Shown one piece after another: positions 1 to 5,496 of a DNA stretch of 5,496 bases. The notes under the pieces were generated by a model. That model was not told where the DNA came from. It saw only the letters and a program-made list of their open reading frames with translations, and did not search any database. This stretch comes from a virus (lineage: Duplodnaviria; Heunggongvirae; Uroviricota; Caudoviricetes). The stretch lies in IMG/VR virus record IMGVR_UViG_2609459846_000013. One strand, given 5' to 3'. The number at the start of each line of letters is the position of its first letter. Position 1 is the first letter of the stretch. The position numbers and the translations under genes are program-made.

Positions 1-99
1 AAAAACGGTTGAGGCGCTGATGTGTAACGTCAGTCCGATACAACGGTTAGTCAGCTTCTTGTCGAACTTGAGCTGAAGGATCTTAAAACAGGTTTCCAT
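1..99 (-). CDS. Partial ORF (first 33 codons only; body lies beyond window start) with helix-turn-helix-like N-terminus; candidate transposase (IS21 IstA / Mu-like) or small-terminase/regulator
   Basis: Reverse complement of 1-99 reads ATG (99-97) then METCFKILQLKFDKKLTNRCIGLTLHISASTVF with no stop to the window edge. AGGAG lies 4 nt upstream of the ATG (rc of 101-109). The ...R.IG.TL.IS.STV pattern resembles N-terminal HTH motifs. Too short for the supplied ORF track. Identity is a guess. Confidence 0.3.
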   Translation of the reverse strand, partial: METCFKILQLKFDKKLTNRCIGLTLHISASTVF

Positions 100-203
100 A
101 GTGCTCCTGGATTTTCTCTTTCTGGACATTGACGTCTCCACTGGTTTAAACACGGCAATGGAGACTGTGGTGAAAAGAGTTAATTCCCGGAGTGACTGGC
201 AGG

Positions 204-350
204 ATGCCAATCAATGATCGGAAGCATGCCAAATCGTGATCGATTGTGATGCCAAACTGTGATCGGAGATGAATGCCAAATCATGATCGATTCGAATGCC
301 AAACTGCGATCGATTCAGATGCCATTTTGCAGGGTAAGCGTAGATCGGAT
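204..350. repeat. Tandem array of ~23-bp direct repeats, each containing a GATC (Dam) site; 5 well-conserved units at 204-325 plus degenerate units to ~350
   Basis: Units start at 204, 226, 249, 273, 296 and 319 (partial), all beginning ATGCCAA(A) and containing (T)GATCG; approximate consensus ATGCCAAAYNRTGATCGRNNNNN. A seventh GATCGG lies at 343-348 and CGGATAC occurs twice (346-352, 356-362). Six GATC sites in about 140 bp. Confidence 0.85.
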
Positions 351-867
351 ACAGGCGGATACTGACTTCATTCAGTTTTGGGGTTGCCGTCTGGTTACGT
401 GCCGCACCTTCTTCGCCGTGTCCCACGACCGCACCCCCGGCAGAAACCAGTTGCTTAAATTCATTACTGTGAATGGTTTTAACAGTACAGATTTTACGCA
501 TCACCGACTCATCAGAAAGCTGACGCATAATTTCTCTGTTCAGTTCCGGGATAACCGTATAACCACCATCAGCCGGAACACTGCCGGACAGGTTGCGGGT
601 TTCCCCGGTCAGAATGTAAGAGCGTAGCTCATTTTTGGTGATTTTATCTTCGACGGGAACACCAGGCTGGTTACGTTCTTCATCAGCCACAGACTCGAGG
701 CGGGAAATTTCTGTGTCGAGGGAATCGGCTTTTGCACGCAGTTCATCAAACTGTTTGCCTTCGTCATCGGTTAGACTGCGGTTTTCACTGTCGGCTTTTT
801 CCAGCAGGGATCGCATCTGGTTTTTCAGGGCGGTTTTTTGCTGGCGGAGTTCGATTAATTTCTTCAT
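211..867 (-). CDS. HK97-fold phage major capsid protein, N-terminal portion only (delta-domain coiled coil plus start of capsid core); probably truncated or interrupted
   Basis: ORF-track protein of 218 aa. The N-terminal ~65 aa are coiled-coil-like (MKKLIELRQQKTALKNQMRSLLEKADSENRSLTDDEGKQFDELRAKADSLDTEISRLE), followed by SGSVPADGGYTVIPELNREIMRQLSDESVMRKICTVKTI...AGGAVVGHGEEGAA, which matches the conserved G-G-Y-x-V-P-E...R-x-hydrophobic...V-G-E-G-A-A block of HK97-family capsids as I recall it. Full-length capsids are usually over 300 aa; here recognisable similarity stops by roughly nt 322-376 and the last ~36 codons are translated from the tandem repeats. Start ATG at 867-865 with only a weak RBS. 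Confidence 0.55.
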   Translation of the reverse strand: MKKLIELRQQKTALKNQMRSLLEKADSENRSLTDDEGKQFDELRAKADSLDTEISRLESVADEERNQPGVPVEDKITKNELRSYILTGETRNLSGSVPADGGYTVIPELNREIMRQLSDESVMRKICTVKTIHSNEFKQLVSAGGAVVGHGEEGAARNQTATPKLNEVSIRLYPIYAYPAKWHLNRSQFGIRIDHDLAFISDHSLASQSITIWHASDH

Positions 868-1100
868 GAAGGTTTTCTCGCATTGGTTAAGATTCAGGAC
901 GTGAAACCAACACGGGGGGAGCGCCGCCCGACACTCTCGGCATCTCGCAGATCAACCCGGCATCGCGCAGGGGGTCAGGCGGCATTGTGGCGGCTCACGT
1001 CTGAGTGCCACACGCCAACATATACATAAAAATCAGTATGTAAACATCAGCCAGAATCACCGAACAACCTGGAACAACCACGAACAAATAATTTACAAAA
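868..1100 (-). promoter_or_regulatory. Intergenic control region upstream of the capsid-like gene; contains paired direct repeats that could be operator/activator sites
   Basis: 233-bp non-coding gap between the terminator and the capsid-like start. Direct repeats CGGCATC(T/G)CGCAG at 938-950 and 958-970 (20 bp apart, two helical turns); CGAACAA at 1061-1067 and 1081-1087 with GAACAACC at 1062-1069 and 1072-1079. No convincing sigma70 -35/-10 pair found by eye on the minus strand, so an activator-dependent promoter is possible. Confidence 0.3.
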
Positions 1101-1104
1101 CCTG

Positions 1105-1136
1105 AAAAAAGGCCCGGAAAAAATCCGGGCCTTTAT
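1105..1136 (-). terminator. Rho-independent terminator (bidirectional hairpin) ending the minus-strand operon
   Basis: Perfect 8-bp stem GGCCCGGA (1111-1118) / TCCGGGCC (1124-1131) with a 5-nt loop. On the minus strand the hairpin is followed by TTTTTT (rc of 1105-1110); on the plus strand by TTTAT. Sits 5-10 nt downstream of the stop of the 1141-1389 ORF. Confidence 0.7.
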
Positions 1137-1140
1137 CGCT

Positions 1141-1389
1141 TTATTGTTTCACTGGCTCCCGCATTCTGCGTCTTATTTTCCACAAATATTCGATCATCGC
1201 TTCCACCTGCTCACGGTTGGTTGCGAAAATTTCCCCGGTCAGTGAGCTACGCAGAAAATCATGATGATCCACAAAAAATAACGCATCGGAAGAAAGCAAC
1301 CGACGATATTTTTTTGCTGTCGTGGTTTCCAGATCATCAAAACCATGAAGCTTTTTATGTTGCTGAACTTCTTCAAATGTCACTGGCAT
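1141..1389 (-). CDS. Hypothetical small protein (82 aa), last gene of the ori-proximal operon
   Basis: ATG at 1389-1387 preceded by AAGGGGGAT, overlapping the upstream gene's stop by 10 nt (ATGCCAGTGA). Basic C-terminus (KIRRRMREPVKQ). No family recognised by eye. Confidence 0.55.
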   Translation of the reverse strand: MPVTFEEVQQHKKLHGFDDLETTTAKKYRRLLSSDALFFVDHHDFLRSSLTGEIFATNREQVEAMIEYLWKIRRRMREPVKQ

Positions 1390-1919
1390 GTATCCCCCTT
1401 TGCTGCCCGGCGCTGGCGCTTGTGCTTCTCATTCAGCACCATCAGCCGTGTTTCTGCCTCCTGCTGTTCCTGTGGTGTCACTTCCCCACATGGCTGGCCT
1501 TTCAGGTCGTAACGTGCGCCACCAGCTATCAGGGCGCGGTAATAGCGCGGAGACTGCGCATAGGATGCCAGCGTCGCACGTAATACCCCCGACCCGAATG
1601 CCAGCCCCCTGACGGCGATATCCTGCATCAGGTCGTCGAATATCCCCACCTTAAGCGGCTTCGGTGCTTTATGGCTGAATAAGTCAGGCCACATCTCAGT
1701 GAGGCGGTTAACGCGTCGGCGGTTTTTGCGCTGCCTTTTGGTCATATGCTGCCACGGTGTCGCCCCTGCGGTCTTCTGTGGCTTCTGCTGTGCGTTCTGA
1801 TTGCCGGGTATCACTTTATGCGCCGATGTGGTTTTATCCTGCTCTTGCGCCGCCTGCGTCGTTTTCTGCGGCGTGCCGTAAATGCCTTTCGGCTTCCGGT
1901 TAATGGTCAGCGTTGTCAT
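1380..1919 (-). CDS. FinO/ProQ-domain RNA-binding protein (RNA chaperone-like), 179 aa
   Basis: The C-terminal half (PLKVGIFDDLMQDIAVRGLAFGSGVLRATLASYAQSPRYYRALIAGGARYDLKGQPCGEVTPQEQQEAE) aligns by eye with the E. coli ProQ N-terminal FinO-like domain as I recall it (PLKIGIFQDLV...[35 protein letters not shown]...). The N-terminal ~80 aa are Lys/Gln/Arg-rich and probably disordered, as in F-plasmid FinO. ATG at 1919-1917 with GGGGGAAGG RBS. Confidence 0.8.
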   Translation of the reverse strand: MTTLTINRKPKGIYGTPQKTTQAAQEQDKTTSAHKVIPGNQNAQQKPQKTAGATPWQHMTKRQRKNRRRVNRLTEMWPDLFSHKAPKPLKVGIFDDLMQDIAVRGLAFGSGVLRATLASYAQSPRYYRALIAGGARYDLKGQPCGEVTPQEQQEAETRLMVLNEKHKRQRRAAKGDTCQ

Positions 1920-1955
1920 GCCTTCCCCCGTAATTACTCTGTTCGCTGTTGTGAA

Positions 1956-2381
1956 TTAAAACGGTATGTTATCCCCGTACGGGTCATCGTGCTGGCTTGT
2001 CTGTTGTTTTGCCCTGTTCAGTGCGTCAGTGGCCTGGCCCTGTTGACCTTTTTTGCCGCCCGGTCGCGCCGTTCGCGCACTGATTACGCTGTCTGCAATA
2101 ACCTGCCAGCCCTGCCGCGTTTCCCCGTTCTGGCCTGTCCACTGGCTCACCTGCATGTTACCCGCCACGCTCACCAGTTCGCCTTTGTGGTGTTTTGCCA
2201 GTGCGTCGGCCTGTCTGCCAAACGCCAGGACAGATAACCACATCGTCGCCGTTCCGTCATCTGCCTGGCTGCACGGCAGGGGAACCGCCATACTCGCCAT
2301 CGCCATTTGTGTCCCTTTGCTGGTGGTCTTTAACTGCGGGTCAGCCACCAGCCGCCCGTAAGCCGCTATCTGTGCTGTCAT
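1956..2381 (-). CDS. ssb: Single-stranded DNA-binding protein (SSB), 141 aa
   Basis: OB-fold signature as in E. coli SSB (GRLVADPQLKTT...MWLSVLAFGRQADALAKHHKGELVSVAGNMQVSQWTGQNGETRQGWQVIADSV), a Gly/Gln-rich linker, and the acidic C-terminal tail ...DDPYGDNIPF (compare E. coli ...DFDDDIPF). ATG at 2381-2379 with GGAGAG RBS; ATGA overlap with the upstream ORF. Confidence 0.85.
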   Translation of the reverse strand: MTAQIAAYGRLVADPQLKTTSKGTQMAMASMAVPLPCSQADDGTATMWLSVLAFGRQADALAKHHKGELVSVAGNMQVSQWTGQNGETRQGWQVIADSVISARTARPGGKKGQQGQATDALNRAKQQTSQHDDPYGDNIPF

Positions 2382-2623
2382 GCTGTCTGCTCTCCGGTTT
2401 TAACGTTGATGGTTGTCACCTGTTCCGCTTCGGCAATCTCCCGTTCTGTCAGCGTGGCAAAGTTTGCCGCTGCCGTGGTCATGAATGCGCTTACCAGTTC
2501 GGGATGTGCTTTTGCGTACCCTTCTCCCGCGTTGCGGTCGATGATTTTTATCGCCACCCTCAGCCAGTGTTCTGTCAAATCAAGGGCGTGAGATTGTGGT
2601 TTTTTTGCGTGCTTCGTTGTCAC
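2378..2623 (-). CDS. Hypothetical small protein (81 aa), first gene after the origin
   Basis: Apparent GTG start at 2623-2621 preceded by TGAGGTAAAG; stop overlaps the ssb ATG (ATGA at 2381-2378), indicating translational coupling. No family recognised. Confidence 0.5.
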   Translation of the reverse strand: MTTKHAKKPQSHALDLTEHWLRVAIKIIDRNAGEGYAKAHPELVSAFMTTAAANFATLTEREIAEAEQVTTINVKTGEQTA

Positions 2624-2910
2624 AGGCTTTACCTCACAGCAATAAAATAAAATTTTTGCATTTTAACCCTTCACCTGTTCACCTTTTGATATTTTCCCTT
2701 TTTATTCATAATGTTAAGGGGTGAACAGTTTCACAAAAACTATTCACCAACTGTTCACCACTGTTCACCCTTAAAGCTCAATAAATAATCAAAAAGGTGA
2801 ACAGTGAATAGTTTGGTGAACAGTTCACAAATAACTGTTCACCCTATAATGTACTGATATAAAAGATATTTATAACAGGGTGAACAGTGGTGAACAGTTA
2901 TTCCATAAGT
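2624..2910. other. Probable origin of replication (iterons flanked by AT-rich unwinding tracts) immediately downstream of the primase-helicase gene
   Basis: Non-coding 287 bp between the primase stop (2911) and the next gene. AT-rich tracts at 2641-2667 and 2845-2876 bracket the iterons. Phage P4 ori/crr carry the same TGTTCACC octamer bound by the alpha protein (recalled knowledge). Confidence 0.7.
2668..2896. repeat. Iteron cluster: about 10 copies of the 8-bp motif TGTTCACC / GGTGAACA in both orientations (P4 type-I-iteron-like)
   Basis: TGTTCACC at 2676, 2752, 2762, 2836; GGTGAACA at 2720, 2796, 2815, 2879, 2889; near-copies TATTCACC 2741, CTTCACC 2669, GTTCACA 2824, GTGAATAG 2805. Two adjacent copies at 2879-2896. 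Confidence 0.85.
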
Positions 2911-4725
2911 TTAATTTTTGCTGTCGTCATTTGTGACCGATGCACATGATGGCATCCAGTCTTCTGAATCCTCTGTCAGTGTCACATTTGAACGCAAACC
3001 GTGCTTCGTTTTCCGTTTTATATACTCCCTGCCATATTCCGCCATTGCCCCCGGCATATCTTTACCGAAGCGCGTCAGTGTTACAGGTTTACCGAATCCG
3101 TGTGCCCTCATATATGCCAGATAGGCGTGATAAAGATACCTGCGCGGACTGAACGGAATAATTTCGGCATTACCCACTAACAGACCATCACACATTACCG
3201 ACGACATGAGATAGCCACAGAAGTCCACCAGCGAATCGCCCTCGCGTTTTATCACCAGAGCTTCTTCTGATTTCTGCTGCTCATACAGCAGGCGTTTAGC
3301 TTCGTCCTGGTCAGAAAAACGAGTAAGCAGATGGCGAATCACAACCGCCAGCTCTCCTTCTATTTTTTCTGCCAGCATGGGGTCGCGCTCGTTCTCCGGT
3401 ACAACCTCCGAAAAATTGAATATCACCCGACGACGTGAGATCCCCCCGCTGCGGTCACTGAATGACATGGCGTTATTGTTCACCGCCAGCACGACCGCCT
3501 GAATGCGTGTTGAGTAGGGGGCTTTATGCTTCGGGTCGATTGCCACCTTGTCACCGCCTGTAATAGCCTTAATTCCTGCGCCATCACCAGCGTAGCGGGT
3601 CATATCCGGCATGATAATCAGCGAAAAGCCAACCACTAACGCGCGTTCCCTTGCATCTTCCAGCGCCTTCATGCTTGCCGATACTGTGTTGGCCTTACCC
3701 GCCAGCATGGTGCAAATCTCCGCCATCACGCTTTTACCACTTCCCCCTGGACCTGTTACCTCAATGAATAACTGCCAGTCGTACCGGTTCGCCAGCACCA
3801 TGAATAATGCAGCCAGCACGCGATCCGTCTTGCGGTCATTCTCTGCCACCGAGCAGCGTAACCACTTCCAGAAATTCGGCGCATGTGTTGCCAGCGTTTC
3901 CCCCTCTGCTGGTGGGCTGAAAGGTAATTCACTGGCAATTAACAACCAGTCGTTTTTGTTATGCTCCCGAAAATTACCTGTTCTGGTATCAAATACCCCG
4001 TTACTGAATCCAATCAGGTTACGGGCTGTATTCCCCATTACAGGCAAACTTAACTTCATGGTATCGACCGCCGATTTAATGGCGTTCTGCGAATAGCTGA
4101 TCTCCGCATCAATGAAAATCTGCGCCATAGCACGCTGTAACTCTTTATCCTGAATCGGCTCCCATACAACGCCGTTGTAATGGTGAACAGTGTCAGAGTC
4201 GGCATGAATCGCCAGTTCACCGCCATAATGTGCCAGGAGAACTTCGCCGCGCTGGCTTGCTCCCATCTGGTTAAGCGCCAGTGGTGCGGCGCTGTCTTCT
4301 GTTTTTTTCTTAACAGGAAGCTGAATCACCAGACCATCAGAAAGATTCTGGCGCTCACGGGCCAGATATTCGCGCCAGTTCTGCACCTCCTGGCCGTGCA
4401 TACCCTCAGGATAAAAATTTGCATCCTGTACGCCTGCCGCCGCCAGCTTCTGACCAATCGCCTTTATCATTACTGGCGCAAGATATCCGGCCCTGAATAT
4501 GCGCACGGATTTTCTGCCTTCCGGCACAATTTGCAGCTTATCCAGTTCGGATAACTGCTGCTCCCCAAGCCACACAGGAGGCTCATTATCTCCGGCCATA
4601 CGCGCGTCATGTTCCTGCCATTGTTTTGCGTGTGACCAGGCATCACTACCCGCAAAAATAATGACTTCTGTTTCTTTGTGTTTTATGCCGCGTGACTGCT
4701 GTTTTACGTTCGGTGCCAGTTTCAT
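2911..4725 (-). CDS. Replication initiator primase-helicase, P4-alpha / D5 family (phage- or plasmid-associated primase C-terminal helicase domain), 604 aa
   Basis: Longest ORF in the window. Walker A GPGGSGKS at residues 325-332, followed by a hydrophobic stretch with an acidic residue (LVVGFSLIIMPDM) and an Asn-rich motif (AVNNN) typical of SF3/D5-type helicases. A D5_N-like region lies upstream (HYGGELAIHADSDTVHHYNGVVWEP). The C-terminal ~120 aa are basic and aromatic-rich and may bind the origin. ATG at 4725-4723 with GGGG RBS; ATGA overlap with the upstream ORF. Primase catalytic motifs were not identified by eye. Confidence 0.9.
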   Translation of the reverse strand: MKLAPNVKQQSRGIKHKETEVIIFAGSDAWSHAKQWQEHDARMAGDNEPPVWLGEQQLSELDKLQIVPEGRKSVRIFRAGYLAPVMIKAIGQKLAAAGVQDANFYPEGMHGQEVQNWREYLARERQNLSDGLVIQLPVKKKTEDSAAPLALNQMGASQRGEVLLAHYGGELAIHADSDTVHHYNGVVWEPIQDKELQRAMAQIFIDAEISYSQNAIKSAVDTMKLSLPVMGNTARNLIGFSNGVFDTRTGNFREHNKNDWLLIASELPFSPPAEGETLATHAPNFWKWLRCSVAENDRKTDRVLAALFMVLANRYDWQLFIEVTGPGGSGKSVMAEICTMLAGKANTVSASMKALEDARERALVVGFSLIIMPDMTRYAGDGAGIKAITGGDKVAIDPKHKAPYSTRIQAVVLAVNNNAMSFSDRSGGISRRRVIFNFSEVVPENERDPMLAEKIEGELAVVIRHLLTRFSDQDEAKRLLYEQQKSEEALVIKREGDSLVDFCGYLMSSVMCDGLLVGNAEIIPFSPRRYLYHAYLAYMRAHGFGKPVTLTRFGKDMPGAMAEYGREYIKRKTKHGLRSNVTLTEDSEDWMPSCASVTNDDSKN

Positions 4726-5021
4726 TTTTTACCCCTGAATCCGTTAATCATGGTTTTCAGCTTCTGGATGTTTGCCCGTGCCCTGGCGTTGCTGGTGGAC
4801 ACGTTATGCGGCGCGGTCTGTACCAGAGAAAAATCACGCCGGAACTGATAAACAGGCATCACGCAATCATATTCGTAACCTTCACGGCGGTAGGTTACGC
4901 GCCGTTCTTCCACGTCCTTAATCATTACCGTGCCGCCGTACTGGTCGCGGTAAATATCGCCGCGCGTAAATTTAGGGTGAGTGTTGCCACTGGCAGTTAA
5001 GCCAGAATATTTAAGTTTCAT
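4722..5021 (-). CDS. Hypothetical protein (99 aa) translationally coupled to the primase-helicase
   Basis: ATG at 5021-5019 with GGAGA RBS; stop overlaps the primase ATG. No family recognised. Position is analogous to the small ORFs preceding alpha in P4-like left operons (inference only). Confidence 0.6.
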   Translation of the reverse strand: MKLKYSGLTASGNTHPKFTRGDIYRDQYGGTVMIKDVEERRVTYRREGYEYDCVMPVYQFRRDFSLVQTAPHNVSTSNARARANIQKLKTMINGFRGKK

Positions 5022-5026
5022 TATTT

Positions 5027-5260
5027 TTATTCTCCGGTGTGCTGTTCTTTATATCTGTCGTGCAATAGATCTATTTCTTGCAGTTCCATTATTACAGGCT
5101 CAAGAAGCGTTATTAATGCCGTGGCAATTCTTGATTTTTGTTTGTCGCGTTCATTGTCGCCAAGTGTTTCAAGCCATATGCGCAATATTTCCAGCATGTT
5201 TTCACTGTGAGAAAGTGCAAGAAATGCGCGGTCTATTGTTTCGTGGTAAATATCACGCAT
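5027..5260 (-). CDS. Hypothetical small protein (77 aa), predicted helical
   Basis: ATG at 5260-5258 preceded by GAGGATG; lies 5 nt upstream of the next gene and overlaps the preceding ORF by 8 nt (ATGCGTGA). Confidence 0.55.
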   Translation of the reverse strand: MRDIYHETIDRAFLALSHSENMLEILRIWLETLGDNERDKQKSRIATALITLLEPVIMELQEIDLLHDRYKEQHTGE

Positions 5261-5486
5261 GGCTTACATCCTCAGGAAATTTTCTTCTATAACGCGCCTC
5301 TGCCACATATTCCGCATAATCGGCGGCGATATTCAGTACATCAAGCCCCGTTGATTTATATTCTCTCGTGGAAAGTAAGAAAAAAGCCGCTCTAATAAGC
5401 TCTGGCATTGACGAAAGCGCATCAGCCGCATCATCAGGAACGCCGGAAAATTCCTGTTTCAGGGAATTAAAACGATCATCACGCAT
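5253..5486 (-). CDS. Hypothetical small protein (77 aa or more; reading frame stays open to the window end)
   Basis: ATG at 5486-5484, but no in-frame stop between it and the window edge, so the true start may lie beyond 5496. Directly preceded on the minus strand by a G8 run. Acidic and helical; no family recognised. Confidence 0.45.
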   Translation of the reverse strand: MRDDRFNSLKQEFSGVPDDAADALSSMPELIRAAFFLLSTREYKSTGLDVLNIAADYAEYVAEARYRRKFPEDVSHA

Positions 5487-5496
5487 AACCCCCCCC

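Follow-up and report, generated by a model that had tools for sequence, protein, structure and literature searches.

What are the three small genes that lie immediately upstream of the primase-helicase gene in the window, the whole stretch of 5,496 nucleotides analysed here? We found that the cassette is ordinary and largely already known, because it belongs to a well-known E. coli satellite type and carries the characterised gene rgdR. What had been less apparent is how closely this gene is joined to replication initiators.

A coupled series of genes

The lengths, overlaps and gap of the three ORFs (Table 1) are all as the initial annotation described them, and the ribosome-binding sites it considered plausible are well supported, with anti-SD complementarity of -6.6 to -10.5 kcal/mol at every start against a background of -2.6 +/- 2.7 kcal/mol over the whole window. 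Given the overlaps, the short gap and these SD-like sites, ORF1, ORF2, rgdR and pri-rep are most likely translated as a single coupled series that ends with the replication initiator. All three ORFs are under purifying selection (dN/dS about 0.14-0.4 versus diverged alleles), and the ORF1-ORF2-ORF3 cassette is present in 792 of 5426 complete E. coli genomes at 80% coverage or more, so they are not chance ORFs. They are real, tightly coupled phage-satellite genes, as had been proposed, and their homologues are syntenic in related elements.

Promoter and terminator signals are no more numerous in positions 2600-5496 than in shuffled sequence, and the operon limits are not defined by them. A single promoter-like site lies within ORF2 (5116-5088, minus strand). 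There were no matches above gathering scores in an Rfam scan of the island, none in an NCBIfam scan of ORF1-3, and none below E 0.1 in PDB sequence searches with single proteins and profiles.

Table 1. Positions of the cassette genes, their junctions and the neighbouring features in the window.
Feature	Position	Strand	Description
ORF1	5253-5486	-	77 aa, acidic
ORF2	5027-5260	-	77 aa, acidic (charge -7) helical hairpin (predicted); ECs1580 slot of Sakai Sp7
ORF3 (assigned as rgdR orthologue)	4722-5021	-	99 aa, DUF4222 domain
pri-rep (replication initiator, D5-type primase-helicase)	2911-4725	-	604 aa; Pfam D5_N, DUF5906, Pox_D5
ORF1 stop/ORF2 start overlap ATGCGTGA	5253-5260	-	8 nt
ORF2/ORF3 gap AAATA	5022-5026		5 nt
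rgdR stop/pri-rep start overlap ATGA	4722-4725	-	4 nt
poly-G tract, 3' end of ORF0	5489-5496	-	8 G here; also SD-like site of ORF1

The element is a capsid-forming PICI

The window is from an E. coli capsid-forming PICI of the EcCIEDL933/O-island-51 type. An intact copy in FDAARGOS_1249, which is 99.7% identical to positions 325-5496, has an early block in the order int, alpA, icd-like, ORF0, ORF1, ORF2, rgdR, pri-rep, ssb and proQ-like, and a late block of HK97 capsid, protease, portal, connector, HNH, terS and terL genes with no tail genes. We took a capsid-forming PICI to be an element of ~15 kb with int, alpA, pri-rep and a head and packaging set and with no tail or lysis genes, and this gene set is complete in the annotated locus L001, which occupies ~14 kb between phoQ and roxA. 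The AlpA of the island belongs to PF05930. In the window itself there are pri, ssb, the proQ-like gene and the 5' part of the capsid gene, which is interrupted by an IS21-family element.

ORF3 corresponds to RgdR

None of the ORFs had been assigned to a recognised family, which does not hold for ORF3. It matches DUF4222 (PF13973) over the entire model (positions 1-53 of 53) with 83.3 bits, where the cut-off is 27, and an E value of 8.3e-24, and it is 79% identical without gaps to RgdR (ECs1581), both proteins being 99 aa long. By its sequence, ORF3 is an orthologue of RgdR, a small basic DUF4222 protein that is already published (PMC3378721). The RGD motif is at residues 20-22 (F-T-R20-G-D), and R20 is invariant across 5 aligned sequences and nearly invariant across 54. 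The pI is 10.05 for the whole protein and 12 for its C-terminal 29 residues, and the predicted fold is a Tudor/KOW-like beta-barrel core followed by a very basic C-terminal helix. In a BFVD fold search, the matches to ORF3 were all either small barrels without characterisation or DUF1653 proteins.

RgdR was described in 2012 as an O-island-51 regulator of type III secretion and motility that binds DNA without sequence specificity, raises LEE1 expression and type III secretion, lowers motility and increases Congo-red binding, activities that are established by experiment for ECs1581, C1493 and ECED1_1787 only (PMC3378721). The suggestion that the ORFs encode novel regulators is therefore half right for ORF3, which is a regulator but one already characterised. 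The level of RgdR in uninduced lysogens suffices to affect type III secretion (PMC3378721), so RgdR is not strictly an induction-phase protein. A 2018 report found rgdR in all E. coli PICIs analysed (PMC6092414). The element type and the RgdR gene have both been published, as has the presence of this gene in E. coli PICIs, and ORF1 and ORF2 are common satellite genes that have been deposited thousands of times as hypothetical proteins. The "unknown ORFs" should be relabelled as rgdR and two conserved PICI genes.

DUF4222 genes adjoin unrelated replication initiators

We noted that the end of a DUF4222 gene nearly always overlaps the start of a gene for a replication initiator and that the initiators are of at least four unrelated types, a pattern that seems to be unremarked in the literature we searched. 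Among the 17 species-representative-genome loci in which the DUF4222 ORF could be delimited, the initiator starts between 35 nt before and 9 nt after the DUF4222 stop in 15. The adjoining gene encodes a D5-type primase (the window, L012 and others), a RepA/AAA_25 helicase (L017, L021, L044, L047), a DUF927 protein (L026 and the O157 matches H102-104) or, in lambdoid prophages, an O-like HTH_36/DnaD_N/Phg_2220_C initiator. The 4-nt overlap is also kept in relatives with a RepA/AAA_25 helicase or DUF927 gene downstream. An exception is L033, where an Ash/Rha gene follows the DUF4222 gene. The joining of a family member to an initiator is seen in roughly one in four complete E. coli genomes, and also in prophages across many other Enterobacterales.

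Because the overlap is found whatever the type of initiator, the native role of RgdR is probably linked to replication. RgdR has hitherto been seen as a virulence-related accessory, but it appears to be almost always translationally joined to the initiator, and this family-wide joining speaks for a core function in the life cycle of the element itself. One could instead regard the cassette as moron cargo kept for host benefit, with RgdR mainly a virulence and motility regulator and its neighbors unrelated passengers. Deletion of rgdR or OI-51 does lower type III secretion, adherence and sheep colonisation (PMC3378721), and the PICI literature lists RgdR among virulence-related accessory genes (PMC6092414). 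However, LEE-negative strains such as ATCC 25922 and Nissle carry these genes too, short DUF4222 homologues are found in prophages of Serratia, Providencia, Enterobacter, Ewingella and others, and stop/start overlaps with initiators of unrelated types would not be expected to be conserved if the genes were cargo, so we consider the cargo explanation unlikely.

ORF2 is a conserved acidic hairpin family

ORF2 is a distant homologue of ECs1580, and its family is very small and found in Enterobacteriaceae only. The exact protein was matched in 24,849 index blocks of public assemblies. The hairpin has two helices and is predicted with confidence, which gives this tiny, lineage-restricted family a predicted structure. 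ORF2 may act on the basic RgdR tail as its partner or antagonist. An obligate pairing of ORF2 with RgdR was rejected, as an RgdR-like gene in E. albertii has an ECs1578-like neighbor and no ORF2 upstream.

ORF1 and ORF2 are equal in length, both start with MRD and share the ATGCGTGA junction, and a natural chimera of the ORF1 N-terminus and the ORF2 C-terminus exists (P0322), which together raised the idea that they are paralogs; this was rejected with an hhalign probability of 0.3%.

ORF1 and the poly-G tract

As first noted, no stop codon closes the ORF1 reading frame before the window edge, but the conserved start is the ATG at 5486, and M1-R2-D3-D4 are invariant in 11 aligned alleles. Upstream is a separate gene, ORF0, whose end supplies the eight G, and the window ends inside or at this tract. 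Complete genomes have tracts of G7, G8, G9 and G10 with otherwise identical 36-nt flanks, counting the full-length matches listed only, since partial alignments inflate the band of 99% identity or more; G11 and G12 are inferred from protein variants. The G7 and G10 forms fuse ORF0 and ORF1 into 154/155-aa proteins, whereas in G8 and G11 alleles ORF0 is joined to ORF1 by the same ATGCGTGA octamer. The 19 fetched loci with the ORF0 type of the window comprise G8 (12), G9 (5), G7 (1) and one interrupted run.

Such fusions raise the question of whether ORF1 is only the C-terminal half of a protein of 154-155 aa that a frameshift within the poly-G tract has divided, either as a pseudogene or as a sequencing artefact. 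There are many full-length ORF0-ORF1 proteins, and phrog_2512 is a family of 154 positions that spans both genes and matches ORF1 at positions 78-154, while phrog_24341 matches ORF1 over all 77 of its positions. Against this, stand-alone 77-aa alleles occur on at least 1000, 991 and 402 contigs compared with 2-84 for each fused sequence, the commonest tract among the fetched loci is G8, ORF0 alleles without a G tract (P0124, P0126) have a normal stop that overlaps the ORF1 ATG, and in L005, L013, L016, L020 and L021 ORF1 is preceded by a different gene of 121-122 aa. We believe that a split gene is extremely improbable. ORF1 is an independent gene in most relatives, where a variant with a 73-aa C-terminal form is also known, the exact protein is on at least 1000 contigs, and its dN/dS versus diverged alleles is 0.35-0.38.

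Disruption in close relatives, which the initial annotation had named as evidence against the ORFs, was found in part and for ORF1 only, which is frameshifted or replaced in some relatives (frameshifted in L012, L014, L018 and L025, a pseudogene in L046). We infer that ORF1 is the most dispensable of the three. On a reading that we think rather unlikely, the G7-G12 tract could switch ORF0 and ORF1 heritably between two separate products and a fusion.

Helper interference and the P4 epsilon analogy

The ORFs had also been proposed to be novel regulators or helper-exploitation factors like P4 epsilon, acting in helper prophage derepression or phage interference. The position is as in P4, where a cI/icd-like gene is followed by epsilon, orf151, orf106 and alpha, the ORF0 N-terminus MHNKTTPD resembles the MHNKNTPQ of epsilon variants, and BLASTP finds a 22-residue patch between ORF0 and epsilon (E 0.004, six-protein database). 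However, P4 epsilon matches the "Derepression" family PF25738 at 9e-51 and none of ORF0-ORF3 does at E <= 0.1, and hhalign of the ORF0 and epsilon families gives a probability of 1.3%, so homology of ORF0 to epsilon is unsupported and the MHNK.TP start in both probably reflects a conserved junction with the upstream icd/cI-like gene. BLASTP of ORF1-3 against P4 epsilon, orf151 and orf106 gave nothing significant, and the comparison with epsilon and orf151 that had been suggested supports no similarity by either BLASTP or Pfam. P4 orf151 was rejected as a DUF4222 relative, having a weak BLASTP patch only (E 0.035, six-protein database) and no Pfam match.

A PADLOC scan of ORF1-3 and their neighbors found no anti-phage defence match at E <= 0.1. 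In Gram-negative PICIs the helper phage turns on AlpA, which activates PICI genes, so it is the helper that induces E. coli PICIs and not the PICI that induces the helper (PMC6092414). Helper induction via AlpA, together with packaging in small capsids that the element makes itself and that receive helper tails, is known for EcCIEDL933 only, and EcCIEDL933 is reported not to block helpers or reduce helper titres (10.1101/2022.09.08.507074). With a different activity already described for ORF3, we find a helper derepression or interference function very unlikely.

A probable replication-linked role for RgdR

Taken as a whole, the explanation that we favor, and think likely to be correct, is that these are bona fide early-block genes of an EcCIEDL933/O-island-51-type PICI in which RgdR is probably linked to replication. 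The cassette is part of the PICI early block for regulation and replication, and the native job of RgdR would probably be connected with the replication module. Produced alongside the initiator, RgdR would act on DNA, the nucleoid or the transcription machinery in a way that favors island replication, and its effects on host virulence and motility would be by-products or a secondary use. The slot 5' of an initiator could also be merely permissive, as the end of a regulatory region, and both the Ash/Rha gene of L033 and the action of RgdR in uninduced lysogens (PMC3378721) are observations against a replication link.

A broader reading, which we offer tentatively and think rather unlikely, combines DUF4222 proteins as general initiator-coupled, host-acting factors with ORF2 as a partner and the G tract as a switch. 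DUF4222 proteins may be small Tudor/KOW-like factors produced in a fixed ratio with the initiators, of any type, of enterobacterial temperate phages and satellites. Their targets would be the host nucleoid or RNA polymerase, for example in countering H-NS-type silencing or in engaging polymerase by analogy with the Tudor domains of UvrD, CarD and Mfd, and they would thereby serve to open the origin of the element or to activate it by transcription. The acidic ORF2 hairpin would act as buffer or partner of the basic RgdR, just ahead of which it is made, and the RgdR effects would look like an hns-deficient phenotype as a spill-over of the anti-silencing or polymerase activity.

Comparison with known systems

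The assignment to an EcCIEDL933/O-island-51-type PICI is reflected in the genes that the island has in common with EcCIEDL933, the capsid-forming prototype, and EcCICFT073, a classical E. coli PICI (int, alpA, pri-rep, ssb and rgdR) and in L001, which like EcCIEDL933 has a complete head and packaging module without tails, a length of ~14 kb and integration at a PICI attB. The IS21-family insertion in the capsid gene sets the window copy apart from these PICIs.

The closest counterpart of ORF3 is ECs1581 of O-island 51/CP-933C/Sakai Sp7 in E. coli O157:H7, whose R20-G21-D22 and K35 are kept. In Sakai, ECs_1581 has the same 4-nt overlap with the replication gene, ECs_1582, and the same 5-nt upstream gap, and Sp7/OI-51 shares the roxA-phoQ site with the intact relative L001. 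ORF3 differs from ECs1581 at 21 positions, mostly in residues 6-19 and 68-95, has A10 and R45 as in the variant of the commensal ED1a, and carries a G36D change absent from the other alleles compared. The LEE1 and motility effects known for ECs1581 are putative for the ORF3 allele. The initiator after ORF3 is D5-type while its Sakai counterpart is a 710-aa protein, the island has a ProQ/FinO-domain gene where Sp7 has the PerC-like pchE, and between the icd-like gene and rgdR there are ORF0 and ORF1 instead of ECs1578/1579.

In the left operon of P4 (cI, epsilon, orf151, orf106, alpha), as in the island, small genes precede a related helicase-type initiator, pri-rep being 49% identical to residues 313-776 of alpha (the C-terminal 464 aa), and both have an AlpA/Vis-like gene upstream. 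In contrast, ORF1-3 have no detectable homology to epsilon, orf151 or orf106/DUF5375, and sid, delta and psu are not annotated in L001 or Sakai Sp7, which have a complete HK97-type head module instead. Unlike P4, this type of island builds its own capsid, as known here from its genes.

In lambdoid prophages of the e14/SfIV/mEp460 type, the DUF4222 proteins are short (55-73 aa), without the N-terminal 15 residues and basic C-terminal helix of RgdR, and are near-neutral (pI about 8, compared with 10.05 for ORF3), and their genes sit out of frame within an annotated ymfM-like gene. They nevertheless share 20 invariant core residues with RgdR, including R20, and the stop of each gene overlaps the start of the replication initiator, as that of rgdR does.

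Layout and coding status of the small genes

The small genes ahead of the primase-helicase are the early-gene block of a phage-inducible chromosomal island (PICI) with rgdR, an ordinary feature that is largely known already. The initial annotation placed three small ORFs on the minus strand at 4722-5496, and their lengths and junctions were borne out exactly. We noted that the cassette genes are coupled in layout: the octamer ATGCGTGA is common to ORF1 and ORF2, 5 nt separate ORF2 from ORF3, and ORF3 shares ATGA with the replication protein gene. The ribosome binding site thought plausible for each ORF also held up, with pairing to the 16S rRNA 3' end of -6.6 to -10.5 kcal/mol upstream of each start against a window background of -2.6 +/- 2.7. 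No promoter or terminator signals defining an operon were found above chance.

ORF1-ORF3 are genes and not chance ORFs, because dN/dS against diverged alleles is low (0.26-0.39 for ORF3, 0.14-0.23 for ORF2, 0.35-0.38 for ORF1) and the exact proteins and the cassette occur widely. The exact ORF2 protein is found in 24,849 index blocks of public assemblies and that of ORF1 in at least 1000 contigs, while the whole cassette (at least 80% coverage) is present in 792 of 5426 complete E. coli genomes, and the rgdR end or more in 1357.

Features of the small-gene block and of DUF4222 genes elsewhere. L numbers are fetched relative loci (L001, the island of E. coli FDAARGOS_1249); H102-104 are O157 genome matches.
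Feature	Location	Strand	Remarks
ORF1	5253-5486	-	77 aa
ORF2	5027-5260	-	77 aa
ORF3 (rgdR)	4722-5021	-	99 aa; DUF4222
Replication protein	2911-4725	-	604 aa; D5_N/DUF5906/Pox_D5
ProQ/FinO-domain protein	1380-1919	-	PF04352, 4.5e-24; downstream of SSB
Poly-G tract	5489-5496 and beyond edge; L001 12890-12898	-	8 G shown, then window ends
Out-of-frame DUF4222 ORFs	L023 3438-3659; L022 3438-3692; L024 2980-3159; L027-L043 around 3900-4200
D5-type primase-helicase after DUF4222	window, L012 and others
RepA/AAA_25 helicase after DUF4222	L017, L021, L044, L047
DUF927 protein after DUF4222	E. albertii L026; O157 H102-104
O-like HTH_36/DnaD_N/Phg_2220_C initiators after DUF4222	lambdoid prophages and phages

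ORF3 is RgdR

None of the ORFs had been thought to resemble a known family, but ORF3 matches Pfam DUF4222 (E 8.3e-24) and is 79% identical, with no gaps, to ECs1581, the published RgdR. ECs1581 is a 99-aa protein of pI 10 from O-island 51 (Flockhart et al. 2012, PMC3378721) that increases LEE1 promoter activity, type III secretion and Congo-red binding and represses motility; in gel shifts it bound DNA without sequence specificity, and its activity is affected by residue 20 of the RGD motif and by K35. Deletion phenotypes imply basal rgdR expression in uninduced lysogens (PMC3378721). R20-G21-D22 and K35 are kept in the window RgdR, and the O157 gene is entered in RefSeq as 'rgdR: prophage regulator RgdR' (H104). 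Based on the RgdR paper, this RefSeq name and the E. coli PICI study of Fillol-Salom et al. (PMC6092414), which reported rgdR in every E. coli PICI analysed, ORF3, the most prominent of the three supposedly unknown ORFs, is a published gene in a published context, and we are highly confident of both its identity and its place in a PICI early-gene block. Residue 36, next to the functionally important K35, is Asp in ORF3 and Gly in the other compared RgdR-type (95-99 aa) alleles.

RgdR is predicted to be a basic barrel-plus-helix protein. The AlphaFold2 model, made from an alignment of 54 diverse DUF4222 sequences (mean pLDDT 79.5, about 92 across residues 20-70), has a five-stranded SH3-like barrel with a short helix, followed by a further helix spanning 77-96. 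Fold-level likenesses listed for the model are CarD, TraI, DUF1653 and NusG, with scores that reflect fold class and not function. The last 29 residues have a charge of +7 and a pI of 12, the barrel is only mildly basic, and the short prophage DUF4222 homologues are near neutral and have no basic tail. This tail probably accounts for the non-specific DNA binding.

ORF2, ORF1 and the poly-G tract

ORF2 has no match in Pfam, NCBIfam or PADLOC and belongs to phrog_2196. It is a distant homologue of ECs1580, which occupies the same slot in the Sakai prophage Sp7 (26% identity, pair E 2e-8) and itself matches phrog_2196 (E 6e-11). An exhaustive HMMER pass over 1.84 billion representatives gave 9 cluster representatives of the family, and all named members are from Escherichia or Shigella. 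The protein is acidic (charge -7) and is modelled as a hairpin. In every recovered context, exact ORF2 is followed by 5 nt, the 99-aa DUF4222 gene and then the replication gene. A universal ORF2-RgdR pairing was rejected: in E. albertii the gene next to the RgdR-like one is instead ECs1578-like.

No relationship between ORF1 and ORF2 was detectable. In the 78-aa protein P0322, a natural chimera, the first ~51 residues come from ORF1 and the last ~27 from ORF2, consistent with a deletion of one gene length between these equally long neighbours.

The ORF1 frame is open to the window edge, as first annotated, but its true start is ATG 5486, given that the four N-terminal residues (MRDD) do not vary among 11 aligned alleles and that the 77-aa protein on its own greatly outnumbers every alternative form. 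Upstream is a separate gene of about 78 aa, ORF0, with poly-G in its last codons. Tracts of G7, G8, G9 and G10 have otherwise identical 36-nt flanks, protein variants point to G11 and G12 as well, and one genome has two island copies, with G8 (L010) and G9 (L011). With G8/G11, the commonest length being G8 (12/19 fetched loci), ORF0 ends ...GGGYA* and overlaps ORF1 by ATGCGTGA, as at the ORF1-ORF2 junction; with G9/G12 it gains nine out-of-frame residues and stops 28 nt into ORF1; with G7/G10 the two are fused into 154/155-aa proteins, which explains the 154 positions of phrog_2512. Some ORF0 alleles lack the G tract altogether and terminate at a normal stop, and a G6/G9 tract is also found upstream of ORF1 where the preceding gene encodes a different protein of 121-122 aa. 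Either a mutational hot spot or a phase switch could underlie this variation. From these comparisons ORF1 is the least constrained cassette member, since it has a 73-aa C-terminal variant, is preceded in some islands by the 121-122-aa gene, and is frameshifted in five loci: L012, L014, L018, L025 (Shigella flexneri) and L046 (E. coli).

DUF4222 genes and replication initiators

The linkage between DUF4222 genes and initiators goes beyond the literature searched. Whatever the initiator type, the DUF4222 stop overlaps or nearly abuts the initiator start. A scan of species-representative genomes gave 19 loci, with a delimitable DUF4222 ORF in 17, and in 15 of these a replication initiator begins within the interval from 35 nt upstream to 9 nt downstream of the DUF4222 stop; the two exceptions are an Ash/Rha gene and a 98-aa ORF of unknown type. 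Hosts with O-like initiators are Escherichia, Shigella, Klebsiella, Enterobacter, Atlantibacter, Citrobacter, Providencia, Dryocola and Symbiopectobacterium. Lambdoid prophages and phages of the e14/SfIV/mEp460 type have a DUF4222 ORF of 55-73 aa that is embedded, out of frame, in the 3' end of the gene annotated as ymfM-like and overlaps the beginning of the O-like replication gene. Most of this hidden ORF would be present in the ymfM filamentation clones that have been published.

AlpA switches on PICI genes when the helper phage is active (PMC6092414), and RgdR binds DNA non-specifically and shifts host transcription (PMC3378721). We infer that ORF0-ORF1-ORF2-rgdR-pri would be translated by coupled ribosomes, so that RgdR would be made along with the initiator. 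Its primary role might be in island replication or a host-takeover step, although we consider a replication-linked role possible rather than probable; the effects on LEE, motility and curli-type binding would then be secondary, and ORF2 may bind or buffer the basic tail. Taken together, the LEE, motility and binding phenotypes may be read as resembling the loss of H-NS silencing in hns mutants.

The host island

Several E. coli chromosomes match window 4600-5496 at 100% identity. In FDAARGOS_1249, phoQ and roxA flank the surrounding 14 kb, in which all genes have the same direction: integrase, AlpA (PF05930), Icd-like, four small genes, primase-helicase, SSB, ProQ/FinO-domain protein and a capsid module (HK97-type major capsid, S78 protease, portal, head-tail connector, HNH, TerS, TerL). 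This island has no tail or lysis genes. In the window copy, an IS21-family element (istA), which forms the left end of the window, interrupts the major capsid gene (junction near 325-331), so this island copy probably cannot build its own capsids. Window 1-324 has no match to island DNA in four related copies (L001, L004, L007, L010), and among complete genomes the junction is shared only by CM128603.1, in its second island copy, with a match to the full window at 99.76%.

The RefSeq Icd-like CDS (135 aa; L001 13110-13517, minus) is head-to-head with a divergent YlcI/YnfO gene (13516-13695, plus), reaching 2 nt inside it. The RefSeq start is probably set too far upstream, as the gene is only 66-68 aa long in other assemblies, and the ~200 nt there would be a divergent promoter region. 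A sub-threshold Rfam match to SymR antisense RNA (L001 13317-13389, plus; 32.8 bits, gathering score 61, E 0.004) is antisense to the 5' end of this gene, which heads the small-gene block; chance is quite possible.

Comparison with P4 and capsid-forming PICIs

Overall, the initial observation stands and its interpretation is partly borne out, with ORF3 a regulator and homologues syntenic in related elements; the reading of the genes as novel helper-derepression factors is unsupported. In P4, alpha is preceded by cI, epsilon, orf151 and orf106, and its residues 313-776 are 49% identical to the window replication protein. The derepression reading lacks support because ORF1-3 have no significant similarity to epsilon, orf151 or orf106, and neither the window proteins nor ORF0 match PF25738, the Pfam family of epsilon; profile comparison of ORF0 with epsilon gave 1.3% probability. 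It also fits PICI biology poorly, as the helper induces the island through AlpA (PMC6092414) and helper yield is not depressed by EcCIEDL933 (10.1101/2022.09.08.507074).

The FDAARGOS_1249 island has the same architecture as the capsid-forming PICIs, of which EcCIEDL933 is the prototype (10.1101/2022.09.08.507074). Sp7 (O-island 51 / CP-933C of EDL933) shares the roxA-phoQ site and the layout, and has the PerC-like regulator PchE at the slot of the window's ProQ/FinO-domain protein, an RNA chaperone domain within a phage satellite that may merit separate attention.
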